From: Takakia lepidozioides
Lineage: Eukaryota; Plantae; Bryophyta
Length of the DNA: 64,000 bases
Reading direction: 5' to 3'
Assembly (NCBI GenBank): GCA_030704615.1
Contig: CM060731.1
Span: 88,660,001 to 88,724,000, forward strand
Shown: positions 20,101 to 63,705 of the stretch, piece after piece
Layout of the letters: every line of letters begins with the position of its first letter
Numbering within the stretch: position 1 is the first letter of the stretch
Notes under the pieces: generated by a model
Told to the model about the DNA's origin: nothing
The model's database searches: none
The model's input: only the letters and a program-made list of their open reading frames with translations
Position numbers and translations under genes: made by a program

Positions 20101-23100
20101 ACAGGTGCCTTGGGCTCACTATCTCCCAAAATCAGTTTCTTTTCCTCTTCTGTGATCTCAGGGTCTTCTGCAGGCGAGCTATATGCCTACCCTTCAACCC
20201 CAGATCGATATCCCTTCAGCCTCCAAACTTCTCTCATTTCAGTTCATACCAAAACCTCCTCTCCCCTGTGTAGAGGTCTGTCTGTTGCAATCCTAAACTA
20301 ACAGGAGAGAGAACAACAACTCTGCTGTTAAATCACTGACTTGCAGATGCATCATCACAACACTGAGATACAAGTTGTACACCATAGAATCCCCACAGCT
20401 ATCTTTTGCCCAGATCCTGGCTGCAGTGCAGCATATCTAGTTCATGTACCCAGTTAAGCACAGCAAAAAAAATTGAACAAAGAGTGAGCAGTATTGAGAA
20501 TTCAAAGCTCTCATGGAAGAAGAATCACCTAGAGAGGGCAACTGGAAAGGAGAAGCGGGCTAACCAGGGAAGAATGGATAAGGCATGCAGGCTTACATAT
20601 CGTTGCCAGGCAGCAAACCAAAGAGCACCGACTGAACCAAACGAGAAGAAGACAGATGGCCAGTTGAATTTGTGAATAAGACCCGGGGAAAAGGCCAGTC
20701 CTATCACTGACCCGAGGTACATCCCACTATAAACCAAGGCCAGTGATCTGCTCCGCTCCCCAACTGGCACCCAGCGTGATAGCAGGTTATTCATTGCTGG
20801 CATTGCAACACCCTTGCATTTCCCCAACCCCCCCGGCAGTTACGCCCATCCTCTTGAGAAACACACTAGTTTAAGTTGAAATGACGATAGTGTGAACTCA
20901 CGGTGGATATTTTAAGAACAGAGGTCAAAGGCTTCGTACAAACCAGTGTTGGACTGGTATATAGGTGAAGGACTGGTATAAAGTACTGGTATATGCACTG
21001 GTATTAGATACCAGACCAGTCTGGTATCGTTTGGGAGAATACTTGGTCATGTACCAGACCAGGCTGGTAACAGTTTTTTCATACCAGCCACAATACCAGT
21101 ACTCCCCCGCAGTCTACCTCATTTACTCTGGTATGTGTACCATATTAATTTATGTGTACATTTGCCTATACATTTGTATTTATGTATATTTACTTCTAAA
21201 GCCATCTTGAATTACAAGTTTATCAAATAGCAAATATCAAGTGAAAATAAATACAATACACATAAAGGATGATACTAGAGTTGATACCTCATACCAGCTG
21301 GTATTGTGGTCATGATACTCATACTCATACCAGTATTTGGACAAATATACATCCACCATTATATAGACCAGACTGGTATGAAAACTTTGTGATACGCCTG
21401 GTACCAGGACCAGACTGGTATGTAAAAAACTTGATACCAGTCCAACACTGGTACAAACTAGGGTGAACATCTCGAGAAAGGCTATATTGCACAGCCGCAT
21501 AAGGAAGAGGCTGCAGTTGGCTCCCATTAGTCACAATCGTGAGCTCACAACCACACTCAAATTTAGAAAACAACAATGTTCATGCACATCTTATGGTTAA
21601 CATATGAAAATGGAACCACATGAACTGAACCTTAGGGACTGTATTTAGGCGAGAAAAACACTCATGATCATATAAATAACTCACCTCGCCAACACCCATG
21701 CAGGCACGCACAAGGAGAAGAGCAGGCAGCCCAAGTTTGGCAGCAATTGGGGTAGCCATGGTGGCAATGGACCACCATATCACGCCAAATCCCAGCACCT
21801 GCTTTCCGCCAATGCTATCCGCCCATATTCCTCCTGCAATCTGCGACCCTTTCTTCTTAGCAGCTTACATTCCAGCATATGACCCTCTGTTTATAGCTTT
21901 CTTTTGGTCTGTGGCTGGTGTTCTCCCTTAACTTCACTAACAACTTACAGATGCCCTTGCTCAGGTTTGGGTGGTTTTCCAGTAGGGTCTAAATTAAGAA
22001 ATTCATGTCAGAGAGAAGATGACTGGATAAAGTGTTGCACTCTAAGATGAGGACATCTTCATCGTTTGGCCAGCTTATATCTGAAGTGGTAACACAAAGA
22101 GGAAACTTGACTATCTGCTACTCTCCAAAAATATTTGGCACATCAATACAGCAACAGCGATTCCTCAGAAAGTCCTTAAAGCAAAAAACCCTACCACCAA
22201 ATATTCGCAATTGCAGACAAAAAAACTCATAAACATCAGATCAGTTAGTTCTGGATAATCCTAAGTGCTTTTCACCATCACTTCCTCTCCAAGAAGAACA
22301 TTGACCTCCCTTCCCTTACATAAGTTTGAGAGAGGTACAAAACCTGGGTGAGAAGATAACCCCAGAAAAAGGAGGACTGCACCAAGCCCACTGTTGTGGG
22401 ACTCCAGTGAAACTCGGCTGACATGGGCAAGATGGCAATGCTCATGTTTACCTGTGCCCCAACCATTCCTCTCTCAATTATTGCCTTCTCCCTTGCCCTG
22501 CACAATACTTGCCCACTATTGATGCAGCACAATTCATGGTCTGCATTCCCAGCACCTTGTTAAATATCAGTAAAATGGCCAAGCCAATGACCACTTCAGG
22601 AAAATTGGAAACACAACATTCATGCAATCTTTCTGCAGTTATGCTGGGGAAAGGAAAGCTTACCCGATCCATGTTGCAAAGAAGGAAGGCAAAGAAGCAG
22701 AGCATCACAATAGTCCAGCGCTTCGGCACCTGCTGCCACCATGCACCTGTGGGGGCTGTAGCTTCTTTATTGTCAGCCTGCACGCTGGCACCGTTACCGT
22801 CGGCCACCAGGCTGAGTGCCAGCTCAGCCAACTTTTTCTGCTCAAGTGAGAGGTTATCTTCACCCAACACATCCTCCCGCTTCATGTCCCCTACCCCCAG
22901 GTTGTCAGCACGCTTAGGCTGACTCCTACACCGCAATTCTGCGTTGCCTCTTCTCCAGCTACTGCGTGGTTGTGCACAGAACAAGCTCTTCATAGAGCCG
23001 TACTCACACCTGTGTCTCAACTGAGTTGCATTGCTTAATGTATGTCCAACTTTGCTCCTACTGCTACAAAACTGTGACCAGAGGGCCCTCTCCAATACTC

Positions 23101-25707: not shown

Positions 25708-28700
25708 ATGTTGGTCTGGTTGTCGTTGTTATGTTTGCTCGTACTGCAGAGGGCATCTGTGACAGAGGCCGATCATGGGATATTTCGATTGACCCACAGC
25801 TACGCACATTTGGAAGGGTCGAGTGTCCAGCGAAGAGGGCAGGGAATGAGTATTGAACACTTCCAGAGATTGAAAGCTCACGACCGGGGACGGATGCGCC
25901 GCTTGCTCTCCATTGTGGATTTTCCTCTGGCCGGAAGTGACGATCCCCTCACTGTTGGGTACTTTCCTTCTCCCTCTTGTAGCTTTAATCAGGGTACAAG
26001 GAATTTGGTCCCCTTCTCCTCTCTTCTCCCGACAACTCGGCAGTAGTCGTTTTTCTGTTTGTCTTCCAGTACCTTCTCCCTGCCTTCTCCCTGCCCTCCG
26101 CCTTTCTTGAGGTGGGTTCATTGGTTTGCATGGAAATGATTCTCATGGCAGGGAAGGAGATGGTGAAAAGGACAGACCCGAGGATTTGCATTGAATGCCA
26201 TCATATATCCCAGCTTCAGTAATAAGAGAGATTGACAGGCTTGGGCAGTGGACTACAGATATCTGCATCCAAATAAAACTTTAGGTCATGTGGCAAAGCT
26301 ATATAAGCTCTCATTGTCCGTGATGGTGAGGTTGGGATCCTCTAGGGGTTCTGGTGGGGCGGAGGACAATCCCCCTGCCAGATTTTTTTTTTTTTTCCTG
26401 TCATGGATAGCAGGTGGGGCCAGTTATAATGAGTGTCAGAACATTTGGATAGGGACTGTAACAGGGGTTGGGGGGCGTAGGCTATACTACACGCAGGTGG
26501 GGCTGGGCACACCCATGCGCAACTATTATCTGCAGGTGGACACTGGCAGCGATGTAATGTGGGTGCAATGCAATCCTTGCTACAATTGCCCTACTTCAAC
26601 TGACCTTCAAGGGGTAGGCAGTCTCCATTTACCAGTCATTGTTGTAGCCGGCTTTGCATATAAAAAATCACGGTCAAAGGCATATGAATCCTTTTAACCT
26701 TGAATGCAGAGGCACAGGTATTGGTAGGGTTCCAAGTGGTCGTCCCTGGCTGTGATGTGATTGGGGCTGTTGGGGTGAGCAGATCCAACTTACCATATAT
26801 GACCCATCAGCATCATCAAGCAGCAAGGATGTGGGCTGCAGTGACTATGATTGCGAAGCCTCCCAACTCAACCCCTCATGCTCCCTGGAGCAGAAGTGTT
26901 TATATGAGCTGCAATATGGGGATGGCAGCATTTCGGACGGATACTTAGTCTCAGATGTGCTAGTATATGAGCAGCTTGTTGACGGCAACTCCACCAGAAA
27001 TGCCTCTGCATCAGTCTTTTTTGGGTTGGCATTCTTCTTTTATCCAAAAAGTGGAATGAATATCATGAATATCATGATATGATATTCATGAATGATGTGT
27101 CTCAGATGTGTTAGTGTATGAGCAGCTTGTTGACAGCAACTCCACCAAAAAGGCCCCTGCATCAGTCTTTCTGGGGTTGGCATTCTTCTTTTATCCAAAA
27201 TATGTCATGAATATCATGAATATGATGATGATGATGATGATGATGATCAATAACTCGATACTTATAAGGATATCTCTGTTCACTATAGAAGCATTGTTGG
27301 CACTGGTGTTTTCTATATGTTGGAATGCTATAACTCCACTGAACTTGGTATATCATAAGTGACCAGGTTTTTACAATGAAGCTCATCCAATATGAGTCAC
27401 AAGATGGTCATGATGTTTCCTCTTGCAAGTATTTCCACTGCTGGCTTGCTCACTATTTGTTTGCTAGATGGATAGAAATGCAGCTATTTAAACAGGATGG
27501 ACTGGGAAGGGGAAAGCAGGTGTGGGTACAACCAAACAGGGGATGGTTTGACATCATCAGCACGGGCGGTGGATGGAATCATAGGGTTTGGACAGGCAGC
27601 TAGCTCAGTCGTGTCCCAGCTCGCTGCTCAAGGGAAAGCCCCTCACGTGTTTACGCATTGTCTGCAAGGCGAGAACAAGGGTGGTGGCATTCTAGTAATT
27701 GGTGCTGTGACACAGCCAAGTCTTGCCTATACCCCCTTGGTTTCTAAGCAGTGAGTCTCTATGCCTTGCTACTCATGTTTCTAGAAGCTCAGCTAGTCAA
27801 GAGTCTTTAAATGGGGAGCTGCACAGGACATTGTGGCCAGTGTAGCACAAGAGGTTTGTCTGAGACAGGGCAGAAGGGTAGAGCATGTGACTTGATGGAG
27901 TAGAGGGCTAAGAGGTAGAGAGGAAAAGTCAAATCACTTGTTGAAGCAATTTATTCTGGCAGAGGTGCCTTTGTATGCATGGGCTTCTTGGTGCCCATGC
28001 AATGTGGTAAAGTCTTGTCCTCCTGGGTTTCTGTTACCAAATGCATTGTGGTAGGACATAGATTCAAGCCTGAGGGATGTTGACTGAGTAGACTTCTGTA
28101 TTCTGAGAGTCACAACCCAGCCATGTCTTTATTCCAGAGTAAATGGGAATGCATTGCGAGGGTTGGGAAAGTGGAACAAAACGTAGTGTGCTTTACACAA
28201 AGTTAGGCTGAAGATATTGAATGGCTGTTGTTGAAAGGTGGTGTTGATAAGTAAGGCACAGTATCTGACGATTGGGAAGGTATGGAGCGATGCAGGGCAC
28301 ATTACAATGTAAATTTGCAGAACATAGCTGTAAGTGGAAGCAATATATCAAGCCCTTCAGTGTTTGATATTTCAAGTGGTGGTGGAGGAACCATCTTTGA
28401 CAGTGGCACAACGCTGGCGTATATTGTGGATCCCGCTTTCACAAATTTTGTGGATGCAGTATGGTTCTGCACCCTGGTTTTTGTTAGACATGTATGTTCT
28501 AGGTGTCACTAGACATTCTTGACACTAAGGTTGACTGAGCATCTTGCAAACTTTCAGCTGGTATAGGTAGAGATCTGCTTGTCTCCGTGTTTGTCTCTTT
28601 TCCCATGCACAAGATTGATCTCACTTCTATCCTAAGGCTTCCTGTTGTTTTAGCTTCCCCCTCCCTTGGAGAAAAGTGTGTCCCTTAGCAGCTTGGAAGT

Positions 28701-39580: not shown

Positions 39581-41250
39581 TGTCATGGTTTTAGTCATGG
39601 TTAACTAGAATTACCCACTTCTAGTTAATTAGGACATTTTGGATATTTATATTTGTATTTTGTGTGTTGGGACTTCATTTGGTCTCATATGCCAAGTGAG
39701 GTGTCAAGCCTCACTTGGGACATGGGGATGGGTTTTCCCCTTGTGAGTGTGGAGGAGAGCTCATTTTCTTGTAGTTGAGCCTCCATGAGCCTCTCTCACC
39801 TCCATAGCTCTAGGTATTGAGAGGGAATGTGTTGAGGGCTTTGTTGATAGAACTGACATGCACCCTTCCTTGCAAATACCTTGCAAGCACAAGAGCTCTC
39901 CTAGCTCTCTACCTCCTTACATACAAGTGCAATACTAATCCTTACACTTTGCACTCACAAGCATAAGGTCATCTTCTTGTAGTGATAATGAAAGTGAACA
40001 TAATGGAAACACTCCATTCATGAATCCACTCAATCACATAAACTAAGTCAAGCCAAGGGCACCTTTGCTAAGGAATCCAAGGGGTTGGAGAGCTCAAGGA
40101 GAGAGCTCTTGTGCTTGCAAGGTGTTGTAAGGGAGAGTGTGTTTGCATTGCATCAAAGAGGTGGAGAGCTCAAGGAGAGAACTCTTGAGTTACAAGGCTT
40201 TGCAAGTATTGCAAAGAGAAAGTCTTGTGTGTGTGGAAGCAAAAATGTTTGAAAGTTTGAGAAGAAGGAGCGTCATCTCTTGTATCTCAAATGTTGTGAT
40301 AACCATTTGCCAAGGAAGTGGCTTCTATGGTGAAAAGAATGCATTGAGGGTTTGTAGAAGCATTATTGTGCACCAAGGGTTTGAGAGCTTGGAAAAGAGC
40401 TCTTGCATCACAAGAGAAGTGTCTTGTGTGTGGAGAAGATAGACACTAGGGTTTCAAGAGCAAGCTTTAGTTGTTCATGGTGTGAGAGAGAAGCCAAAGA
40501 GTGGCACATGCTTGGGTTGGAAACACCATTGAAGGAGTACAACAAGGGTAGCTTGAGGAGCATTGAGTAGCTCAAGAGAAGCTAAGAAGTGGTTGTTTTA
40601 TCCATGGTGAAATGAAGCCAAGTGGGGTTTCATTTGGTTGACAAACAAGCAAGCTAAGGCGCTAGAAGGGAGTGTTTTTGCTAGTTCTATGAGTTCTTGG
40701 ATTGCTCTTGGTGAAGCAAGTGGTTGACCAAGCAAGTGGCGCATGTGTGGAGTAAGCTTTCCAAATGTGGCTTCCAACTTGAAGCTTGATGAGAGCTAGA
40801 AGGTGAAGTGAGCAAGTTCATTCCTTTGTGTATGAGGTGGTGCATGTGTGGAGCATGTTTTTGGCTTAAGCTTTGCTTTTTGAAGCTTGAGAGGAGTGGC
40901 TCTTGAGCTAGCAAGTGAAGGGAGCTTGAATGACCAAGGTTTGAGAGGAGGCAAGGCTTGGTGGCTTGCTAAAGGAGGGGGTGCATGTTGTGGAAGAGAA
41001 GCCAAGGAGCTACATAGGCTAGGGCTTGAAGACAACAAAAACAAACACTTGGAGAGCATCAAGAAGCTCAAGATGACCCTAAAGGGAAGCATGTGGGTGA
41101 AAATTCTATACATGATGATGTGAAGCCTAAAGCATTGAAGAGCTTGGAGCACATGTGGGAGATCATTGGAGGTGGTCTTCATGAAGAAATGAGATTGTGG
41201 CTCAAGGCATGCATAGCAACTTCAACCATACATTAGGATGGACAAGTCAA
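39581..41250 (+). repeat. 5' LTR, first part (continues inverted from 47824 leftwards)
   Basis: 39581-39843 matches 60179-60440; 39980-40073 matches the reverse complement of 60447-60538; interrupted by CACTA at 41251. Confidence 0.75.
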
Positions 41251-43912
41251 CACTACAACAGATCGTGGTATATATGACTGTATATATGACTATCCCGTAG
41301 TCATAAACGGTACATATGACTGCAATGACTTTAAGTCGTGCAAACCAAGTGAATACAATGAGTACAGTATGGTCAGTCATGGATGACTGCAGTCAGATGA
41401 ACCAAGTGATACATCTCACTGTCGTGTGGCAGTAATATGTACTTCTACTTAGTATGCTGCTACAAAGCAGGGATAGAGTGTGGGTTCAGATTCATCGAAG
41501 AGGGCCAGACTTCAAGCTCGACATTACCTACAATTCCATGTGGATCATCAATAGCTACTAGCAACCTGCATGGGTAGATGGTCAACTGGAAGCTGCAGCA
41601 GCAGCGACGGAATTGATAAAATCAGGCACTGCTAATGAAGGCACCTTCTTCAACACATTTTCACCTTGTTTTTCTTTCTTATCAGAATCGACCCTAAGAT
41701 TCCATGTTGAATTCTGCAAGTTAGCTGGTTGAGTGAACCTTTGATAGTTGGAGTGACTTTGACATGATACTGTCAATGTGACAATATGAAAGTATCCTGA
41801 AACAGGTAACAGAGATGGGGTGAAGCTGTGGAATGCATACTTTTCTTACCCATTCAATGGTGGGACAATCGAGGCAAGAAGGTGAATGTCTGTTTGATTA
41901 TAGAGAGTAGCAGATTCAATTGAGCATAGGAACAAGTGTGATAAGTTGAGTTGGGTGTTTCCTAGAACAAATCTAGGCTGTCATCGTCAGCTGCTAGCAG
42001 CAAAGCAAGGATGTATGCATGATTTGTGCATAGCCATGGATAGCTGAAGGAGCAGAGATAGAGTGTGGGTCCAGATTCATCCAAGAGGGCCAGAAAGAGG
42101 TCCATGGTGACATCGTCAAAGCTGGAATTGTACCGGATGTCATTATGAACACTACCCTGGTGGACATGTATGCCAAATGTAGGTGCATTAAGGATGCGAA
42201 GGGAGTTTCCAACACTATGGCTGAACGAGATGTGGTGTCGTGGAACGCGATGCTTGCAGTATGCACAGCAAGGACGTGGTATGGAGGCTTTGGAGACCTA
42301 TGATCAAATGATGGGGGAAGGGGTGAAGCCTGACCACATCACGTTTTTGTGCATTTGCAATGCATGTGCAAGCCTGGCAGCTCTGGAAAAAGGCACAAAA
42401 GTCCATGGCAACATTGTCAGAGCTGGAATTGTACCAAATGTCATTCTGAACAATATCCTCGTGGACATGTACATGCAAAATGTGGTTGCACCCTATCCTG
42501 CTGATTTGTTGTTGTGCTGGAACAGTAGCAAACGTAGAAAGACATACGCATTTTACATCTGTTGTTATCTTCAGTGCATATGTAGTGTCATTTGCACTTT
42601 GTCAGACTATTGTTTGAGGAGTCAGATTTTGGGACTCCAGTGCTATATCGTAAATTTGACTGGCAGCAGTTTAAGAGAAGCTCTTACATCTACTGCTGTC
42701 TTTAAGTGCCTATGTTTTGTCCTTTGCACTTGCCGACTTTGTTCTTTCCTGTGATTCTTGCCTGGGTATAAAGCATTCATTTGCAGAGTCATTTTTTGTC
42801 TCTTTGTTCTTCCATTTGTTCTTCTCTTTGTTTAGTATTGAATAATACTAACCCTAATATCTACTAACCCTAACGAGATAAGCATAGTCGTGGTTTTGTC
42901 TGTCCAATACATTTGAAAGTTCAAAACAACCCCTCATATGACACGCAGATCCTCCTCATGGATATGCCACGTGGCAGTTTCGGGAGACACCATATGGCGC
43001 ACATCCACAAAACCTCAAAGACACAGCTATCCATGCCTCTGCCCATCATGCATTCACCCTTGCCTTGCTGTTAACAGCTGACAATGAAAGGCTCGAATTG
43101 TTCTAGGAAACACCCAACTCAACTTATCACACTAGTTCATATGCTCAATGGCCATTAGGAAGAAATTTACGGTAGTTGGGATACACCATCTTGTGAAGAT
43201 GGCGGGAGCTATGTGCAAAGATCATCGCCACAATGCAAGCATGCATGTTACCCTTTGGTGCTTAGCCCCGAGCAAACAGTTAGTCCTGTACTACACATCC
43301 CGCCACATTAGCAAAAACAAAAAGTTGTCATGTGCATGATCCATAATGCCATCTACCCCACTACGGTGCACAAGACTGTCGCCGCTACTTCAATCAATCC
43401 CAATCCTCATCGATATTATCCGGCATTGACAAGTGAATGTGCGCGGGTTGTTCATGGGGAACATAATATACCTGGATAATCATGCATTGTCCAAAGCAAT
43501 ATGCCTCTCATATGAAAAGATTGTCCGGCCATAGGGTCAAGTGAAGCATCCAATGCCGGGACCCCCCTCCATAGCTCCTTAAGTTCATCAACAAGAGGTC
43601 GCAAATACGTGTCCATGTTTGCCACTTGTTTTTTCCCTATGAGACATTCACATCATTGTTTCAATGCTCCACCAATATGCAAATTATACTACAAAATGAA
43701 TTACACGTCTTACTCCATGATTATGTCACTAATCAATCTTGCATCCGAATTGCGTCAGAGATCAGAAGTTTAATGTAAAGTCTAAGGCAATAATAAACAT
43801 GAAATGAGTACACTCACCTGGCACAATGGCAGCCAACATGATATGGCATTTTTTAATTGAAAGATACGGAGGGATGTTGTAATTCACCATGGTCACCGGC
43901 CAAGTGGAATGA
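41251..43912. mobile_element. CACTA element, one end, with PDF/PPR gene fragments and an intron-containing Tnp2 transposase fragment (minus, 43150-43912)
   Basis: CACTACAACAGA at 41251 with ATGACT subterminal repeats. Tnp2 reads HSTWPVTMVNYNIPP, MDTYLRPLVDELKELW, LLWTMHDYPG and YRKFLPNGH. Confidence 0.85.
41460..42490 (+). pseudogene. Scrambled OSB-type PDF-motif and PLS-class PPR gene fragments
   Basis: GPDFK...W; QWWDNRGKK; LVDMYAKC; VVSWNAM; GVKPDHITFLCICNACASLAALEKG. Paralogous to 48830-50300. Confidence 0.85.
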
Positions 43913-46125: not shown

Positions 46126-48779
46126 GATGGCATTGTCATGTAGGAGTATGATAATTTATCACTATTCTATGTCTGAAAAAAATAGTGTTGTGACAGCAAA
46201 AAATGGACACTGTAGGCTGCAATCACCCTGGCATAAACCGCACACCTCGTCTTGTGTACCACTAGTATTGCTGGCACTGCTCGTATCGGCACTCCCCTCA
46301 GCAACTGGTGGCACCTCCGTGATGAAAACTCACAACCACACCTGTTGTAAACCTGTCTCTAATCCCCCTTTCCATAAGGTAATCGGATAGAGAACCTGTT
46401 GCCGCTTATGGCTTAGACTACTAGGTTCTTAATATAAACCTGTACCTGCACCTGCATCCACCGCAAACACTCCTATGGTTGGATGGTCGTCACCCGAACC
46501 TCACCACAGGAGAAACAATGATGGTCTGACTGGTCATCACCCCAGCCTCACCACCGACAGCATGCTCTAGGATTGGCCGGTGATCAAATCCGGACCAACC
46601 TCCTATGAAAACAAGCGCCCACACAAAGCTAACATGGCGCACAGTCAAGCATGCAAGTGTGGAGGGGATCCAAACGGAAGAAAATCAAACAGTAACTCCC
46701 CCACACCACAAACATTCCACAGTGTCGCTCCTGCAAGACACCCCCAGCCCAAACCCGGACTGATTCTTGCCTCCACCTACGGAAATGTTTTGGCCTACAG
46801 AGAGGGTGAAAGACTACATGGAAGAGAGACTAAAACAACTCCTAATCCAGCATGCTCTCATCCCACTAGCCTATCTCCACACTCTCTTGGTGGAGCAATA
46901 GACAATACTACCTTTCAAGGGTCTCTCAAATAACTCTCCAAGAGCCCTCAAGATGTCTATCAAACAATCTCACTAAGGCTCCCAATCCTTACACAATGGG
47001 ACTCCAAAACAGTACACCAAGGCCCAAGAGCCTGCCAAATCTCGGCCCTCAAGGACCCGAAATAGCCCTCCAAAGGCTCTTCAACGTGTCCTCCAAAGAC
47101 CCCCCAAGGATCCTCCAAAGGAAATACTCCTCCAGATACACCATATATGTCATACACTTTTAATGAAAACGTATGGCAGGAAAAGTCTCTCCACTTGTAT
47201 CCATACACTGTTCAAAAAAGTGTATGTTGGGCAGTATGAGCCATACTCTTATCACAAAACTGTATGGTGGGCAGAATGAGCCATACCCTGTTTTTGAAGT
47301 GGATGGAGAGTAGGGTTTGTAGAGTATAGTAAGAAACACCATACACATTATTGCTCCTGATCCATGCTTCTACCCCAAGTCTTAAGGAGTTTATGCGATG
47401 GTGAGAAACACCTTCTTCATGGTATCTTCCCCCCTAACATGCATGCAAGATTGCATTGTCTTATCTTGCAATGAATTCATCACAAATTGACAAGTTCCTC
47501 ATGATCTCCTTGGAACTCATAGCAAGCTAATGTGCCCAATGACAGGCGCCAAGCCTTGCTTCAATTTGACTTTTGTATGCCATCTTCTATGTGTTTTCCC
47601 TTGCATGGGCTAGTCACACACACTTCCACCTCTTGACCTAGGTGTTGTCTTCATTCACAATAATGTGTATCCACACCTCTATTCAAGAGCTCATCTTCTC
47701 AAACTTGAAGTCATAAGCCCTAAAGAGCATGTTCCACATAAGCATCACTTGCTTGATCAACCATCCACCACAAAACTTAAGCAAGAAGAGAATGAATACA
47801 TGAGCTTCACCTTCCCCTTCCTTGCACTACAACAGAACGCGGTATATCTGACTGCCAGGCCGCGGTAGTCATGGTTTTCCTGACTTTGACCATGACTTCC
47901 TTGTATTTTTGGACCAAATGGGGCTTCACGTAGTCGTTGAAATGACTTCGTGACTATGTAGTCCTCTGAGCGACTACGTTGGTAGACGTCGTCATGACTG
48001 CATGGCTCCGCAGGAGACAGAAGGGTGGTCAACGATGATTGACCAGCGCCAGCTTGCCACCAACAGTCGCCGGAATGACTTCTAGTGCAAGCTTGGTAGC
48101 CAAAACGTTAAAAAATTCAAAAAGTTGTTTGTAGGGTTGCCCATTAGAGGGCTGGGACTTAGCCTCATTTTGGTTTTTTTGCTTTTGGTCTCCTGTGCGT
48201 TTTCTTAGTAAAGAGCTGAGAGCATGAAACGCGATGATCGCAGGATATGCAGGGGCGTGGGATGGAGGCTTTGCAGAGCTATTCTTGAGCAAATGATGCA
48301 GGAATGGCGAGGATATGCACAACGTGGAGGTGGTATAGAGGCTTCGGAGACGTATGAGCAAATAATGCGGGAAAGGGTGAAGCCGGACTGGGTCACGGTC
48401 GTTTGTGTTTGCAATGCGTGTGCGAGCCTGGCAGCTCTGGAAAAGGTAAAAGGTCCATGGTGACATTGTCAAATTTAGGGTATCCAGAAACAGGTAACAG
48501 AGACAGATGTGGCAGTATTGAGGATACAAAGGGAGTGTTTGAGAATATGGCTGAACGAAATGTCGTGTCCTAGAGTGCAATGATCGCGGGATATGCCCCA
48601 GCACGGATGCGGGATGGAGGCATTGGAGACCTATGAGCAAATGATGAGGGAAGGGGCAAAGGCAGACAGACTTGGTCACGTTCGTTTGTAGATGCAATGC
48701 GTGTGCGAGCTTGATTCTTCTTCGACCTGTTTCAGCCTGTTTTGCCCTCTCATCAGACTCGGCCCTGAATTGCTCGGCG

Positions 48780-50760
48780 GAGGAGAGCTGGCATGAGTTT
48801 TTTACAAATCCTTCACGATGGTGGGACAACCGCGATCACAAGTGCTTTGACATGTTACTGCCAATGTAGCAACTGGAAAGTATCCAAAAACAGAAAACAG
48901 AGATGAGGAGAAGCTATGGAATGAATACTTCTCCGACCCCAGTCAATGGTGGGACAAGCGAGGCAAGAAGGTGAATGTTGTTAGATTACAAAGAGAAGCA
49001 GATGCAATTAGCATAGGAACTAGTGTGATAAGTAGGGTTGGGTTATTTGTTAGAACAAATCATTGTCAATTGCTGGAAGCAAGGCGAGGATCTTTGCATG
49101 ATTTGTGCAGAGGGGCAAATAGCTGAAGGAGCAAGGATAGAGTGTGGGTCCAGATTCATCCAAGAGGGCCGGATTTCAAGCACAAGATTACCTATGATTC
49201 CCTGTGGATCAGTAGCTACACAAAACCTGCATGGGTAGATGGTCAACTGGAAGCAACAGCGGTCACACCGACACAGTTGATAAAGTCAGGCACCTCGATC
49301 CTAACCACAAGCGCTTCTAAAAGAGGACCAAGAGAGGGAGTCCACAATGACTCTTCTGGGACTTCTAGGCATGTGAAGATGCTTTGTGAAGCAGACTGAC
49401 TGACAGTGGCTCTACAGACTTTAAACCAAGGAGGAGGCATTTCAGCAGATTCAGATACGTATGTCTGTCTCTTGCATAAGTGCATCAAGATGAAAGGCCT
49501 GGAAGCTGGAAAACAGGTGCACGCTCACATCATCCAAAGTGGATTCAAGCCAAACGTTTTTTACACAACACCCTTGTCAACATGTATGTTGAGTGCGGGA
49601 GCATCATGGATGCTCACCAACTGTTCAACAGAATGCCTCAACGATCTTTGGTCACGTGGAATATTATAATGTTGGCAGGATTTACCAAGCATGGGTGTGG
49701 TACAAATGCTTTGGAGACCTACAAGCAAATGAGGCTGGAAGGGGTAAGCCCGACCACATCACATTTGTTTGCGTTTGCAATGCGTGCGCGAGCCTGGCAG
49801 CCTTGGAAAAGGGCAAAGAGGTCCATGTTGACATCGTCAAGCTGGAATTGTACCAGATGTCATTCTGAACACTACCCTGGTGGACATGTATGTCAAATTT
49901 GGGTGCATTGAAGATGCAAAGGCAATGTTCGACAAAATGGCTGAACGTGATGTGGTGTCGTGGAGCGCGATGATCGCAGGATATGCACAGCAGGGTCGTG
50001 GGATGGAGGCTTTGGAGACCTATGAGAAAATGATGCTAGAAGGGGTGAAGCCCAACTAGATCACCTTGCTGGCGTTCGCAATGCATGTGCAAGTCTGGCA
50101 GCCTTGGAAAATGTCTTGGTCCATGGTGACATTGTCAAAGCTGGAATTGTACCAAATGTCATTCTGAACACTGCCTTGCTGGATATGTATGCCAAATGTG
50201 GGAGTGTTGAAGATGCAAAGGGGATGTTTGACATTATGGCTGAATGTGATGTGGTGTTGTGGAACGCGATGATCGTAGGACATGCACAGCAGGGTTGCGG
50301 GATGGTTGTCATTCTGAACAATACCAAGGTGGACTTGTATGCAAAATGTGAGTGCATCGAGCCCTGGACAAGGGCAAAGAGCTGCATGGGGATATCATCA
50401 AAGCTGAAATGGTACCAAATGTCATTCTGAACATTGCCCTGGCAGCTCTTGAAAAGGGGAAAGAGGTCCATGGCGACATCTTCAGAGCTGGAATTGTACC
50501 AAATGTCATTCGGAACAATACCCTGGTGGACATGTATGCAAAATGTGGGTGCATCGAGCCCTGGACAAGGGCAAAGAGGTGCATGGGGATATCATCAAAG
50601 CTGGAATTGTACCAAATGTCATTATAAACACTGCCCTGGCAGCTCTGGAAAGGGGCAAAGAGGTCCATGGCGACATCTTCAGAGCTGGAATAAATGTCAT
50701 TCTGAACAATACCCTGGTGGACATGTATGCAAAATGTGGGTGCATCGAGGAGTCCCCCGT
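48780..50760 (+). pseudogene. OSB/PTAC9-type PDF motif(s) fused to a PLS-class PPR array
   Basis: WHEFFTNPSRWWDNRDHK, then EEKLWNEYFSDPSQWWDKRGKK, intron 48971-49153, then IHPRGPDFKHKITYDSLW...PAWVDGQL. The same frame continues into TYVCLLHKC...GKQVHAHII and P-L-S repeats, with stops and frameshifts. Confidence 0.85.
50308..50750 (+). repeat. Tandem ~190-197-bp duplications of PPR L/S-motif coding sequence
   Basis: Unit starts at 50308, 50505 and 50696. Confidence 0.85.
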
Positions 50761-53700
50761 GGGTCATGACACAAGGTCGAGGACAATGTGGTGAGGGCAC
50801 CTTCTTCTTCAACCTATTTCAGCCTGTTTTGCCCTCTCATCAGACTCGTCCCTGGATTTGCATGTTGAATTCTGTAATTTAGCTCGTTGGGTGGATCTGC
50901 ATGGGATAGCTGAAGGAGCAGGGATAGAGTGTGGGTCCAGATTCATTCAAGAGGGCCAGATTTCAAGCTCCAGATTATGTATGACTCCCTATGGATCAAT
51001 AGCTACAAGAAACCTGCATGGGTAGGTCGTGTTGTGATATCTCCCATGGATGCTGAAGACGAGTTGTGCTAAAAAAACAGAGTGTGCCCTGGTACGATCG
51101 ACCACCTTAGCAACAAGTCCTGACAAAGATGGTATTTCTGAAGGGTTGTATGGTGAAGAGAAGCGTGAATTGAAGAAAGAGGATGTTGCAGAGGAAGGCG
51201 ATAAACAAGGAGGTCCTCCAAAGAATAAAATGCATTTGGCATTCCTTGACATTGCTGAGGTTGTAATAGATGGAGCACTCAGTCAGAGCAAGGGAGTGGA
51301 AGGTGTAGGGATATGTCAAGAGACCAGCGCGCATTTGGACACTAGGAGATGCAGAAGTGAGGTTGATGAGGTCAGGGAGATGGACATGATGAGGTTGGGC
51401 GCTCCCTATCCTATGATACACGGGCAGCAAGTCAAAATTGTTTTTACTTTGATGCAATGACAAGTGAGGAGGATGAAGGGGAAGGACAAGCTAATTCTTC
51501 AGGCGATGACAACGATGATCTGAATCTGAACTGGGGTAAGAGTAGTCCGATTGGTATTCCAGGGGCACACTCAAGTTCAGACATCCTGTTCATAGTGGTC
51601 AGGATCTTCTACTCTCTGTAATCCAACAGGCATTCACCTTTTTGCCTTGATTGTCCCACCATTGACTGGGGTCAGAAAAGTTCTTTGTGGGTGGGGATAT
51701 ATGTAGGACCTGAAGATTCACCATCTTCTAGATCCCATGCATATTGAGAAGAATGTCTGCTCGTCCCTTTTTCGGGTTCTTCATGGCACGCCGGCAAAAA
51801 AGGGAGTGGCTGCAAAAGGAGATTCTCTCGGTGTTAGAAAGGAGCTTGAGGAATAGGGTCGCATGCGCCATCTATGGGCCGAACAAAATGGTGTGGACCC
51901 AAAGGGTGTTGTACGGTGGAAGTATAGGCGCGCACCTTGGCAATGGACAAAGGAGGAATACAAAAAAGTGATAGCCACCATAAATGTTGTCCGAACACCA
52001 ACTGGTTATGGGTCATCCCTCCGTACGAAGTTCAGCAAGGAAGACGGGGTCCATGGTTTGAAGTCTCATGACTACCACAATCTATTGCAAGACATCTTGC
52101 TCATTGCAGTACGTGGGACATTGACTCCCACTTAGTGGAAGAGGCTTCGATTGCCGGCCCCGTTCATTCTCGGTGGATGTACTTCCTTGAGCGTTATATG
52201 AAGACTTTGAAAGGATTTGTAAGACAAATGGCGCACCCAGAGGGTAGCATGGCGGAGGGGTATACGTTGCAAGAAGCTATGTTCTATTGCACGGAGTACA
52301 TGGCAAGGGTGGATTAGGAAGCCCCTCGGATGTCAAAGGAAGAGGAGGATGCACGAACCAAAGACATCATTTTGCCCAAAAAATCAAAGAGGGTAAAATT
52401 GCCGACCTTGGTGATTGAGCAAGCGCATGACTTCATACTGAAGAACACCCCATCCATACATGAGTGGGAGGCAAGATACAATAATCTTGTTCAGCAACAA
52501 GAGGAGGAGACGCTTGCATAGAGGCGGAACCATCCAAGGCCGGTTACTAAACGTCCACGACGAGGAGCGGGCCGCCGGAATGTTCCTTCACAAAATTTGA
52601 TCATGGAATTGCAGCCTCTAAGTTCATTCCAACAATGGCTTTGGACTTCAGTTTATGACGCCGTTGTTCAAGGAGAGGTGGTTTCAGATTTGGTGCAAGA
52701 CATTGCAAGGGGCCCCTCTCAATTCGCGACCTCATACACGGCGGTTTGGGTTCACGGTCGTCATTTCCGCATTCGTGCTCTTGACATGAAGCACAAAACA
52801 ACCTTTGATTCAGGCTTGTGTACCACATATTGACAAGACTCCGTGTGGGGCAAGGGAGATACATAACCTCCTATGAGCAAACTTGAGTACATTGGAGAGC
52901 TTGAGAGCATACTCCAACTTCAGTATACGGTACCGGCCTCTTCTCTTCAAGGGAAGGTGGTTCCAGCCACATCTTGTGGGGCCCACCGCAACACTAGTGC
53001 AAGATGATTGTGGTTTCATGCGTGTCAATGCAGATAGGCTCAACCCTACTAATCGTCCCTCCGATGAGTCTTTTTCACGGCCTTCAGACATGGAGCAAGT
53101 TTTCTTCTCCGATGACAAAACAAGAGGGGGGAATTGGAAGGTGGTTGTGCATGCTCAGCCAAGAGGAAGACGTATCTATCATGGTCTCGGATCTCCATGG
53201 GGTGAGGCAATTGCGGTGGACGGAGAGACTGGACATAATGATGCTGATGATGGAGGTTGGGTAGAGGGGGTGGAAGAGGATGATGACGCCCCGGACAATG
53301 CATCCTGAACCCTATATGATGAAGCTCTAGAAGATACGGATGTTGGAGAAGGAGACGAAGACACGGCCATTGACAACGAGGTGGAGGATGATTCGGAGGT
53401 GCCTTTTGAGGGCCAGGCCATTTATGACGATGACTCCAATGACCAAGAAGACTTGCAGCTTGATGAGGATGAAGAAGCTCCGGATGATGATGTTCAAGTT
53501 GATTAGACACAAAATCAAAACTACATAACAATTCTCGCACCAAACTGGACCCATCCCTTCGATTGATTGTACATGTACATGCATATTGTACTTTATTTCT
53601 ATGATTGATCAAATATGGCTGTGGCTGGTAGTCTTTTAAGAAAGAAGGCAGAGGCAATGAATATGTTGGAGTAACACATACTTAGATGGGCGGCGTGGGC

Positions 53701-55902: not shown

Positions 55903-56800
55903 AAATGGAGCGACCGCCAAGCTGGCGGTCGCTTCTACGAGGTCTGTTTTTATAAATGCAGCGACCGCCATTACTGGCGGTCGTTTTATTTTTATTTTTT
56001 GGCGAAATGGAGCGACCGCCATTTGTGGCGGTCGTTTTTACTTGTTTTTAAATGGAGCGATCGCCAAGGTGGCGGTCGCTTCTACGAGGTCCGCCCTGCG
56101 CGTGGAGCGAGGAATGAGGGGGTGGGGGGGCATATAAGACCCCAGTCATTCTCCCCTCACTTCCATTACTTGCAGTTTTTGTTTTTACAAAATGCAGCGA
56201 CCGCCATTTCTGACGATCGCTGTAATGGTTATTTTTAAAAATGCAGCGACCGCCAGTTTATTTTTTTATTTTTAGAAATGGGGCGATTGCCATTACTGGC
56301 GGTCGCTTCTATTTAAATGTTTTTGAAAATGAAGCGACCGCCATTACAGGCGGTCGCTTCTCTATATTTTGGAGGAAAATCGAGCGACCGCCATTACGGG
56401 CGGTCGCCACAATTGTTTTGTTTTTTGTAAATCCAGCGACCGCCACTACTGGCGGTCGCTTTTATTAAAATTTTGTTGGAAATGGAACGACCGCCATGAC
56501 TGGCGGTCGCTTTTATTTGAAGCGACCGCCTATGTTGGCGGTCGATTAGTTATTTTATTTTCGGAAAATGGAGTGTGGCGGTCGCAGTTTTTTTTTAATC
56601 CGGAAAATGGAGCGGCCGCCTGTTCTGGTGGTCGTTTTTATTTTTATTTTTATTTTTAATATTTCCGGAAAATGGAGCGACTGCCATTTATGGCGGTCGC
56701 AGTTTTATTTATTTATTCGGAAAATGGAGCGACCGCCATTTCTGGCGGTCGCTTATTTTTTATTTTCCGGAAAATGGAGCGACCGCCAAGTTGGCGGTCC
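55903..56800. repeat. Array of short hairpin units GCGACCGCCA-N(2-4)-TGGCGGTCGC separated by A/T tracts
   Basis: Directly visible. A larger unit is also duplicated at about 56080-56165 and 56803-56890. Confidence 0.92.
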
Positions 56801-60093: not shown

Positions 60094-60623
60094 TGGCATA
60101 GCTTTCTAGGATTGTGTGCTTAGAATGTATGGTGGACAACGATGTATGTTGTGGCACGATGCCTAGGTGCACGGCAGCTGTCATGGTTTTAGTCATGGTT
60201 AACTAGAATTACCTACTTCTAGTTAATTAGGACATTTTGGATATTTATATTTGTATTTTGTGTGTTGGGACTTCATTTGGTCTCATGCCAAGTGAGGTAT
60301 CAAGCCTCACTTGGGACATGGGGATGGGTTTCCCCTTTGTGAGTGTGGAGGAAAGTTCATCTTCTTGTAGTTGAGCCTCCATGAGCCTCTCTCACCTCTA
60401 TAGCTCTAGGTATTGAGAGGGAGTGTGTTGAGGGCTTTGTAGGGTGCCCTTAGCAAGGGTGCCCTTGGCTTGACTTAGTTTATGTGATTGAGTGGATCAT
60501 GATTGGAGTGTTTCCATTATATTCACTTTCATTATCATTGTGGCATAGCTTTCTAGGATTGTGTGCTTAGAATGTATGGTGGACAACGATGTATGTTGTG
60601 GCACGATGCTTAGGTGCACGACA
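60094..60623 (+). repeat. Rearranged 3' LTR after the polypurine tract
   Basis: PPT AGGGGGG at 60083-60089; an ~85-bp LTR-end unit at 60094-60176 and 60539-60623; LTR start at 60179. Confidence 0.75.
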
Positions 60624-61505: not shown

Positions 61506-63705
61506 CTAGTGCATCTGAGATAACCGACCATTCTGTTTCCAAAAGCCCACACTTCCATTCCCGTCCCCATTCCTGAAGGAGGGTCGCAGGCCAGCATCAT
61601 CAGGTTGGCCAGGCCAGCAGGGGTCAGGTCCCCGATGCATGTGGTCCATTGTATGCAACCCATCGCTGGAGGCTTGCTGGCCATACCAATTGGCAATGTA
61701 TTTAGCATACCTGCCAAAACACCACACCCCACTCCCTCAACCACAGCCATTCTCCACAGCACCTAAAAGCCTCCTTTGCAAAACTGGCCTACCAACACAC
61801 AACTGAATCAGGCACCAATGTCTGACCACTAACAGGTCATGTGGGAAACAGGGAAACATGGGACGTACTGATCATCAGAGTAGGCCGTGCCAGCCCCACC
61901 CGCCACCCATCCTCCATATAAGGGCCCTGTACTGTTGTAACCCATCTGGCCTCCACCCTGTCCAGTGTGTCAAAATAAAGTCATCACTCCAATGACGATT
62001 ACAATTGCCAGTTCAAGATAGAGCTCAATACAATCGAGGAATAACTAACCTGGTGGTAGCCATTGTACTCCCTCATATGGCCATGGCCATGCCGCTGTAA
62101 ATATTCCTCATAGGTCTGCTTCACAATTGCATCCCCATGAGTGCACACTTGGTTTGAGGCAATGCAAGGAAAGCTGTGGTCTTAAAAGTATGAGAGGAGA
62201 CCACACAAAAAAGTCATTTCTGCTTACCAAGAGAAATTAGCCTGGACTAAGCCTTCCTCATTGACCAAAGTGGGATATGAAGAGCACATGCTACAAACAC
62301 ATTACCATGCATCTTTGGGGTCGCTTCCCTCAAGAAGGCGTTAACCCAAAAACTGATGGAAATACTACCCCACATGTCAAAACATTGCCTGGGGATACAA
62401 CTTCTGGTATAAGACCAAAGTGGAAGCAAGTACGGACCATATTGAGTAGGTCCTCTTCAGGTGCTAAATCTGCACTTCTGCTGCTACTGCTGCTGCGAGT
62501 ACGATCCTTGTGCAACACCCTGTCCATGTCTCTCAGCCGCTCTGTGTCACTTTTCTCAGGAGCGAGAGAATGTGGTGACCTTGACCTTGAGGGAGGTCTA
62601 GGAGCTTCCCCCACATGAAGGCTCTTGCTTGTGAAGCCACTAGACCTCACCATTGGCCTCGAAGATGCAAAGGCTTCGGGAGGGGCCATATGAGGAGGGT
62701 ACATCAAAGGCAGTACAGGGCCTGATGTGGGTGCAGCAGGCAAGCGTGGCCTATATGCAACTTCCCCCACCCCCTCTCCACGTGGTCTCTTTGTCACTTG
62801 GGCAACCACCATGCCAGACCCCAACTTTCTGTTCACAAGCCACATACAATGCTCAATTCTCTTGCAAAATGACATGAGGACAGCCCAACTTGAAGTTCAA
62901 CTGGTAGGAGGAGTGAAAGCAATGTCTGTGAAGAGCTTACCGTTTCGGCCGACCCTCTCTATCAGCACCCTCATCAATGAGGGCACACAACGCATCACCA
63001 ATCTCTTGCGTGAGCTCCTGTGTAACAAACAACTTGTTTGTGAGTGCAGGGTTTGGGGGAAATATGAAACACATCTCAACCACTGGCAGCTGAGCCCATA
63101 CCTGACAATCTCGGCTGATCTTGACAGGCTTGTAGGAATTCAATGGATTCTTCAAATGAACAGTCTTCTGGAAGGGTAGATCATAGAGGCGCAACCATTC
63201 CACCCGAAAAGTTCCACCCCAAGGGTTGGCACCTTCATTCGCTTCACTCCATATGTTGGCCCTACGTCGCCCTATTGGAGTTGTCATTCGTGCATATCCT
63301 TGGAAGTGGCTGCTCATGTTCACACTGAACACTAACAAAACTCTCTCCGAGGTCTACACCACAGCATCCCACAAAGTTGATTGGGAGGTTGTCACATAGC
63401 CCAGCAAAACAGCAAACGACAAAGACATAACCATCTATTTGCATCAAAAGGCTGTGTCCGTAAAATACCCACCTCAAATGCCTCATTGAGGACAGGCTCA
63501 TTCATAGCTTGTGTAGCCCAAATCCCTTTCTCGATTGACTTGGCTATATTGTGGTGATTTAAGCTTTTTATGATGAAATATCTGGTATTGTACATTTTCC
63601 GTTGCTTTAAAGCTCCGCTGCTTGTACCACCATTTGCCAGGTCTCTGCCCTCTGTGACTTTGTCTGCAAGGCGTTGTTGACCTTTCCTTAGGTTAAGCAT
63701 GCCTC
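61506..63705 (-). CDS. YTH-domain m6A reader, YTHDC1/ECT12-type; start not resolved (ATG at 63700 or an upstream exon)
   Basis: Exons 63473-63705, 63102-63353, 62941-63017, 62438-62828, 62050-62115, 61869-61957 and 61506-61710 join in frame. Motifs RYFIIKS...SIEKGIWATQ...FSVNMSSHFQGYARM...NPLN..KPVKISRDCQEL and DLLNMTYEEY. Confidence 0.92.

Follow-up and report, generated by a model that had tools for sequence, protein, structure and literature searches.

Organization of the PDF motif and its intron

The window analysed here, 64,000 nucleotides of the bryophyte Takakia lepidozioides (GenBank assembly GCA_030704615.1, contig CM060731.1, positions 88,660,001 to 88,724,000), is plant nuclear DNA rich in transposon remains. 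At 48.2-51.7 kb it carries a heap of gene pieces that very probably represents a dead, rearranged copy of a gene in which OSB-type PDF motifs precede a PLS-class PPR array, termed a PDF-PPR gene below. Coordinates are those of the window, and features lie on the forward (+) strand unless the reverse (-) strand is indicated. According to passages of three papers (PMC6963530, PMC4166229, PMC13393729), PDF motifs are blocks of some 50 residues that contain a conserved Pro-Asp-Phe; OSB proteins carry one to several of them behind their OB/SSB-like domain, and the motifs are responsible for the binding of single-stranded DNA.

Direct reading of the sequence revealed that 48908-48970, the end of an exon, encodes the first half of a complete PDF motif, EKLWNEYFSDPSQWWDKRGKK, which is 76% identical to residues 145-165 of protein P0004, an intact relative from Diphasiastrum complanatum. 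It is followed by a phase-0 intron of 183 bases (48971-49153) with GT at 48971-2 and AG at 49152-3, inside which an in-frame TGA lies at 49124. The frame of the first half resumes at 49154 with the second half, IHPRGPDFKHKITYDSLWISSYTKPAWVD (49154-49240); an OSB2-like protein aligns with it over its PDFKHK..LWI..P.W part. When the intron is removed, WWDKR...PDFKHK...LW...P.WV spans 50 residues, that is, a block of the length and with the Pro-Asp-Phe signature by which the PDF motif is defined. A half motif, EESWHEFFTNPSRWWDNRDHK, corresponding to the first PDF half only, occurs upstream at 48780-48842 in a frame different from that of the complete motif, with a breakpoint at about 48843. Both the intron-split motif and the half motif preceding it, as reported in the preliminary description, were thus borne out.

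An alignment of 41 PDF-bearing PPR proteins has 16 invariant PDF columns, and the complete motif of the window retains all 16 (7/7 in the first half and 9/9 in the second), while the upstream half motif keeps 6/7. In pairwise comparison the window peptide matches the PDF motifs of P0230, a protein named 'OSB2, chloroplastic-like', with E values of 3e-6 and 1e-4. Judged from sequence, the likeness to OSB PDF motifs together with the retention of the invariant columns is far beyond chance.

The PPR array and lesions of the local copy

From the second PDF half the frame remains open through 49558 into the first PPR motif, except for a TGA at 49397-9. It crosses a variable linker (49241-49375) between the PDF motif and the first PPR motif, which resembles the clubmoss type (QLIKSG...KRGPREGVHNDSSG...VKMLCEAD*LTVAL in the window as compared to HIQSG...SRVPDSFCNGD...LSKLCEEGRLKEAL). 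The array itself extends over 49376-50305, and Pfam PPR repeats were recognised at 49480-50427 (PPR 2.1e-15, PPR_2 2.1e-10, with PPR_1 also matched); the repeats recur every 299-304 bases, as expected of P-L-S triplets of about 101 residues, which places the array in the PLS class.

The in-frame run into PLS repeats with a single TGA at 49397, described earlier, therefore holds only as far as 49558. From there on the frame shifts four times (at about 49558, 49745, 49838 and 50065-50077) and meets a second in-frame stop (TAG, 50057-9). At 50305 the array ends abruptly and gives way to tandemly duplicated short PPR pieces, seen by self-comparison at 50307-50750 with a 197-base unit in 2.3 copies. 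The copy accordingly bears two stops and four frameshifts within 1.15 kb. It lacks a start and has only a short leader-like piece, so that neither the intact frame nor the targeting leader of an editing factor is present. The C-terminal E, E+ and DYW deaminase domains of PPR-E/DYW proteins are also missing, as tblastn with the E/DYW part of P0004 (residues 601-828) or with a leader found no match in the 64-kb window (best E 0.24). The gene copy is dead, and what the locus presents is an ordinary pseudogene heap.

Intact relatives of the PDF-PPR gene

The region 48851-49558, read through its two TGA codons, was searched among longer proteins (1030 candidates) and matched three, all hypothetical proteins of Diphasiastrum complanatum (best E 6.4e-38, 92% query cover). 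The 90-residue frame at 49127-49396, used alone as the query, gave no match among longer proteins. The three Diphasiastrum proteins consist of a leader, one or two PDF motifs, a linker and PLS repeats, with a DYW end in P0004.

A second query, the double-PDF region of P0002, was compared with proteins 458-1460 residues long and gave 182 matches at E<=0.001 among 274 candidates, with 120 of the matches listed; the figures that follow refer to these listed matches. PPR Pfam families occur in 119 of the 120. The matches comprise 98 rows from Diphasiastrum, which represent at least 94 locus tags on 21 chromosomes and unplaced scaffolds, 11 from Sphagnum, two from Calypogeia fissa and eight unlabelled rows, four of whose clusters contain Sphagnum-named members, in addition to one MMETSP transcript (P0072) without PPR. 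Simple patterns found WWD.R and PDFK in 80 of the 98 Diphasiastrum rows, two or more PDFK in 13 and the DYW deaminase signature in 30. One member per lineage (P0004, P0098 and P0121) was scanned with Pfam, and each displayed PPR, E, E+ and DYW_deaminase, the last with E values of 6e-42 to 2e-44. The check for E/DYW domains called for earlier was thus positive in the relatives and, as stated above, negative in the window. The order common to the intact annotated proteins is leader, one to three PDF motifs, linker, PLS repeats and E/E+, often with DYW.

The PDF motif, linker and PLS array of the window are colinear with these intact proteins. Residues 160-460 of P0004 form one tblastn match to 49136-50071 (E 6.5e-53) that spans the second PDF half, the linker and the PPR array, and residues 94-484 of P0025 match 48908-50071. 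The PDF and PPR parts hence do not map to separate parents, and the earlier proposal of a donor gene encoding PDF motifs fused to a PLS PPR array is supported by both the intact proteins and the colinearity across the junction. PDF motif and PPR repeats also stand together in unlabelled proteins from short metagenome contigs, for example P0104 (849 residues on a contig of 2923 bases), which argues that the fusion is no artefact of gene modelling. On the evidence of these sequences, PDF followed by PPR is the order native to a real gene family, and the junction in the window is no local accident.

The Sphagnum-type gene of P0104 leaves no room on its contig for an intron matching 48971-49153, so the PDF intron was either gained in the lineage of the window or lost in the Sphagnum-type gene. 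Among 85 placed Diphasiastrum family loci, 39 have another member within ten gene numbers, which suggests that local clusters and plain tandem duplication are common in the family.

Relationship to OSB proteins and other carriers of the PDF motif

The PPR-borne motif of P0172 matches both PDF motifs of P0230 with E values of 2e-9 and 3e-9, and by sequence comparison it is homologous to the OSB motif. The shared pattern, W..(F/L)...P..WWD.R..K....PDFKHK....LW....P.W, covers about 50 residues in OSB and PDF-PPR proteins alike. However, OSB proteins have a central SSB/OB-like domain and C-terminal PDF motifs, whereas the PDF-PPR proteins carry an N-terminal motif before the PPR repeats, and the spacer from WWD.R to PDF is 8 residues in the PPR-borne motif as compared to 12 in OSB. 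Pfam detected no SSB-like domain in the window frames or in P0004, P0098 and P0121, which sets them apart from the OSB family, and no Pfam model matched the PDF motif itself in the scans of the window and of the PDF-PPR proteins.

PLS-class PPR-E/DYW organellar editing factors, of which PPR56 and PPR65 of Physcomitrium are examples, share with the intact relatives the PLS triplets followed by E, E+ and DYW deaminase, and with the window the PLS-type repeats. The PDF-PPR relatives differ from them by the addition of a conserved N-terminal PDF module, which none of the searched surveys and reviews of PPR proteins names, and the window copy by being broken and without E/DYW. Accessory-domain fusions of editing factors, such as RRM-PPR, MORF-RRM (ORRM1) and MORF-P, are catalogued in passages of PMC13386178; they resemble the PDF-PPR proteins in that a second nucleic-acid-binding or partner module is fused to a hallmark domain of editing factors, but the PDF motif is in none of the fusions catalogued in those passages.

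The multi-PDF protein P0072 was searched against a representative library of 1.84 billion proteins, which yielded 238 proteins at E<=0.001, 150 of them listed. Ten matches were looked up, and two are named OSBs, an OSB2-like protein of Cornus florida and OSB4 of Tarenaya hassleriana; both display weak SSB matches below the Pfam cut-off, including an SSB-like stretch in P0230. Six tandem PDF-like units of P0072 align with the PPR-borne motif (E 3e-10 to 1e-5), but P0072 and its relatives have neither PPR nor an SSB Pfam match. These multi-PDF proteins are probably algal in origin. Up to six or more tandem PDF-like units without a Pfam domain were observed in P0072, P0179-P0183 and others, at least one of which is from a marine eukaryote transcriptome, and 15 of 23 long matches contain no Pfam domain. 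In P0227 (1526 residues, gene model as given in the library), PDF-like repeats at residues 182-389 precede a kinesin motor domain (E 1.8e-86).

Constraint and predicted fold of the PDF module

Mean column conservation across 19 full-length PDF-PPR-DYW proteins was 0.28 for the leader, 0.76 for PDF, 0.61 for the linker, 0.67 for PPR, 0.70 for E and 0.81 for DYW. These alignments indicate that the PDF motif of PPR proteins is about as conserved as DYW and is under constraint.

In the AlphaFold2 model of a full Sphagnum protein, the PDF region (predicted local distance difference test score, pLDDT, 73-92) lies directly before the first PPR helices, and the 85-residue leader is disordered. A natural fragment consisting of the leader and the PDF motif alone gave a pLDDT of 81-97 for the PDF region, which was modelled as a long helix, three short strands and a final helix. 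The PDF region is thus predicted to fold on its own.

A sequence search of the double-PDF region against solved structures gave a chance match only (E 0.82). Foldseek of the PDF model against the PDB had no match at E<=0.001, the best being a WW domain at E 5.3 and probability 0.05, and VIA-align against 48161 chains had a best Z of 2.9 with none at 5 or above. In the protein atlas, residues 86-152 of P0098 were without a usable match, and residues 88-150 of P0172 had a best value of 0.83 (Phage_gp49), within noise. The lack of a solved-structure match for the PDF model does not show a new fold.

Contigs from public sequencing runs

Contigs from public runs were compared with the window. Of ten runs listed, none is on record as RNA; two, X5 and X7, are guessed to be RNA, and X1 is a DNA run labelled with the same organism. 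The contigs derive from members of the family and not provably from the window locus, their depth gives no copy number, and no weight is placed on the parts left uncovered, namely 49266-49311 within the linker, which was hardly covered in four runs, and 51159-51500.

In X1, 49617 short contigs match 48.23-51.04 kb at >=90% identity, and 51159-51500 has none; this abundance is read only as a hint of a very large family in Takakia lepidozioides. The same run contains 394 different joints, and among the 15 listed is 49170->50459, which is the junction of the second locus described below.

The exact removal of 48971-49153 was seen in four contigs of X5 and two of X7, the runs guessed to be RNA, and in five more contigs with diverged exon ends; unspliced forms are also present. 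In both runs the depth of each PDF exon half is 10-100 times that of the intron.

At 49397 the related contigs of X5 carry A in 12275 of 12921 depth units, with G at 49395, which together restore LCEAGRL; the TGA is hence private to the window copy. A frame-restoring extra T after 49556, in a run of T, accounts for 8472 of 122996 depth units in X1 and 1426 of 7413 in X5. Being in the minority of the depth, it suggests that close relatives of the window copy mostly share the frameshift at 49556, and dead copies of the subfamily seem to have multiplied after that lesion arose.

Rearranged copies around the locus

Gene pieces of the same kind are shuffled in order and orientation within about 10 kb, at 41.4-43.2 kb and at 48.2-51.7 kb. 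The window contains in total four first and four second PDF halves, one of them cut to 7 residues, and a single pair is properly arranged.

A second locus (41466-42490) contains the same pieces in a different order. It begins with the 3' end of the intron, a second PDF half with an in-frame stop and the start of the linker (41466-41629, 82% identical to 49130-49293; second half 70% over 30 residues by tblastn, with 7/9 invariant columns), followed by a leader exon piece with intron-like DNA (41636-41735, 76% identical to 50792-50893). An exon with a frameshifted first PDF half, its intron and the first 20 or so bases of the second half come next (41752-42094, 81% identical to 48841-49173; exon 86%, intron 79%). 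At 42094 the truncated second PDF half runs straight into the middle of a PPR motif, IHPRGPE being followed directly by KEVHGD, and the abruptly joined PPR fragment (42094-42490) is 83.5% identical to 49815-50201 (Pfam PPR_2 1.6e-6); this is the junction to which the X1 joint 49170->50459 corresponds. An inverted copy of part of the PDF intron lies at 43036-43149 (-), matches 49010-49113 and forms inverted repeat I1 (105 nucleotides, 89% complementary to 41919-42023).

Around the main copy, decayed PPR fragments at 48212-48713 (70-73% identical to 49673-50305, with a weak Pfam PPR_2 match and a tblastn match with P0004) abut a tentative N-terminal leader exon piece at 48715-48779, ILLRPVSACFALSSDSALNC, which is in the frame of the half motif, 93% identical to 50802-50858 and weakly like residues 56-80 of P0004 (E 0.99). 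A third partial copy at 50792-51025 comprises a leader piece, intron-like DNA, the 3' end of the PDF intron and a second PDF half that keeps 8/9 invariant columns, 50906-51025 being 90% identical to 49119-49238. An inverted fragment at 51604-51681 (-) carries the end of a first PDF half and the start of the intron (inverted repeats I2 and I4; tblastn match FSDPSQWWDNQGKK).

The copies diverge equally in exon and intron (79-86% identity), and their differences by codon position number 8, 8 and 12; both observations show that the divergence of the copies is neutral decay. The retained intron points to DNA-level duplication rather than retroposition for the local copies. Together with the even decay of exon and intron, we infer that they arose by DNA-level duplication and rearrangement in a large family that gains and loses copies. 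An inverted-repeat search and self-comparison detected no terminal repeats or common flanks around the copies, and the gene-derived parts alone match one another.

Neighbourhood of the window

Directly to the right of the fragment heap lies a frameshifted CACTA/Tnp2-type transposase remnant (51707-52314, +; DUF4218 E 1e-21 at 52072-52314). Arrays of a unit of about 51 bases occupy 55949-56800; their palindromic core, GCGACCGCC-N6-GGCGGTCGC, occurs in 12 matches as compared to none expected by chance, and they may be subterminal repeats of a DNA transposon. A 264-base direct repeat (39581-39844 and 60179-60440, 96% identical) brackets about 20.6 kb including both PDF-PPR loci, and a 91-base inverted repeat stands beside it (39983-40073 and 60448-60537). 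An assignment of the direct repeat as a pair of long terminal repeats (LTR), or of the repeats as a pair of terminal inverted repeats, was considered and could not be shown.

Other features of the window are a reverse transcriptase of an LTR retrotransposon (1751-2923, -; RVT_1 E 1.2e-31), exons of an MFS-type transporter with a weak Pfam match (18661-20186, -), the N-terminal part of an aspartyl protease (26236-26694, +; TAXi_N/Asp) and an exon encoding a YTH domain of the N6-methyladenosine-reader type (62940-63353, -; Pfam E 1.7e-27).

Nature of the locus and role of the PDF module

Taken together, the stretch is with high probability a dead, rearranged copy of a PDF-PPR gene. In genes of this kind, one to three OSB-type PDF motifs stand ahead of a PLS array, and the intact relatives end in E/E+ and often DYW; in these relatives the PDF module is predicted to hold single-stranded nucleic acid next to the PPR footprint, at its 5' end. 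Several points weigh against this reading. The closest intact proteins are only about 30-38% identical over long alignments, with 63-76% in the best-conserved pieces. The spliced forms were found in runs only guessed to be RNA and could be intron-less DNA copies, since PPR expansion is reported in passages of PMC13386178 to be driven mainly by retroposition. In a family so highly repeated, assembly error could account for part of the scrambled order. No binding or editing assay was found for any member of the PDF-PPR family, and the preference of OSB1 and OSB2 for single-stranded DNA over RNA, reported in passages of PMC4166229, would by analogy favour a tether to DNA over a clamp on RNA.

PPR tracts bind RNA in parallel orientation with the N-terminal repeats on the 5' side, and DYW acts immediately 3' of the footprint. 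Placed a few residues before the first repeat, a PDF mini-domain that is conserved, aromatic and basic would therefore come to lie at the 5' edge of the bound RNA. On the model, the PDF module has about an even chance of acting as an accessory clamp that holds single-stranded RNA 5' of the recognition sequence. This role is favoured because the module sits just before the first PPR repeat, and the N-terminal repeats lie on the 5' side.

The strongest competitor, though still unlikely, is the tether proposed in the preliminary description, by which the PDF module of the live proteins would bind single-stranded DNA and so keep editing factors at the nucleoid or the transcription bubble. By analogy it would draw on the homology of the PPR-borne motif with that of OSB proteins, on the sufficiency of the OSB1 PDF motif for binding single-stranded DNA (reported in passages of PMC6963530) and on the DNA preference of OSB1 and OSB2 just mentioned. 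These reports, however, concern OSB motifs and not the PPR-borne one, whose spacer is shorter by the 8 as compared to 12 residues given above, and in the model the PDF region precedes the first PPR helix by a few residues and is aligned with the path of the RNA. A role of the PDF module as a protein contact appears less probable than either the clamp or the tether.

The manner in which the fragments spread is a separate matter and is compatible with the reading of the locus as a dead PDF-PPR copy. That they travelled as cargo of a mobile element (Pack-type CACTA, Helitron or similar), rather than as members of a decayed tandem cluster, seems improbable. The 49617 X1 contigs over 48.23-51.04 kb with none on the right flank, the 394 joints, the recurrence of the second-copy junction, the frameshift at 49556 common to most close relatives and the adjoining transposase remnants would all suit such transport, but the copies are without common terminal repeats or flanks and their matches are confined to gene-derived parts. 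Moreover, copy number cannot be read from contig depth, a similar picture would arise from motifs conserved in a very large PPR family, and tandem duplication is common, as is evident from the 39 of 85 placed Diphasiastrum loci with a near neighbour member.

A local chimera, in which separate OSB and PPR gene fragments were joined by transposon capture or repair with no real fusion gene behind them, is very improbable. The neighbourhood is indeed a patchwork of fragments shuffled in order and orientation, with the CACTA-type transposase remnant at 52072-52314 and a clearly artificial junction at 42094 that recurs in DNA contigs. The junction at 49240-49400, however, is colinear, in a single frame, with intact proteins of three distant plant lineages, the linker resembles that of Diphasiastrum, and neither the window copies nor the three scanned PDF-PPR proteins contain the SSB-like domain that defines OSB proteins. 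Least probable of all is a live gene whose lesions are assembly errors or are bypassed, because the contigs that mend some of them (A at 49397, extra T after 49556) are from other family members and not demonstrably from the locus, and two stops, four frameshifts, the missing start, leader and E/DYW, an array ending in a tandem duplication of short pieces and the neutral divergence of the copies all stand against it.

Literature status and significance

Searches of the full-text literature, subscription journals and bioRxiv supplements lying outside their reach, found no paper that links the PDF motif to PPR proteins; one paper has both terms, in unrelated passages. A 2026 phylogeny of OSB proteins has no occurrence of PPR, and a 2026 kingdom-wide survey of editing-factor fusions (PMC13386178) has none of OSB, PDF or single-stranded. 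This agrees with the preliminary description, to which the architecture was not known as functionally described. Domain-based surveys would likely miss such fusions, since the PDF motif matched no Pfam model in the present scans. The PDF-PPR family is a real and conserved variant of PLS-DYW editing factors, and apparently an undescribed one.

A wider proposal is advanced tentatively, at somewhat less than an even chance: that PDF-PPR-E/DYW proteins constitute a large, old and undescribed class of organellar RNA-editing factors in bryophytes and lycophytes, of which a single clubmoss, Diphasiastrum complanatum, has at least 94 loci. In such a class, the OSB-type single-strand-binding module would be integral and selected, with a compact fold lacking a solved counterpart, and would either lengthen the RNA footprint or couple editing to single-stranded DNA at sites of transcription or recombination.

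[quoted passage not shown] On about a hundred proteins of this type in one species, a conserved additional module, predicted to bind nucleic acid, has so far gone unnoticed. The use of the PDF motif also extends beyond OSB proteins to PPR proteins, to bare repeat proteins and, once, to a position before a kinesin motor. The window contributes a dead example, the position of an intron inside the motif and a hint of a very large family in Takakia lepidozioides. The family as a whole offers a handle on how the editors of early land plants find or hold their substrates, and bears on a possible link between editing and organellar DNA transactions.

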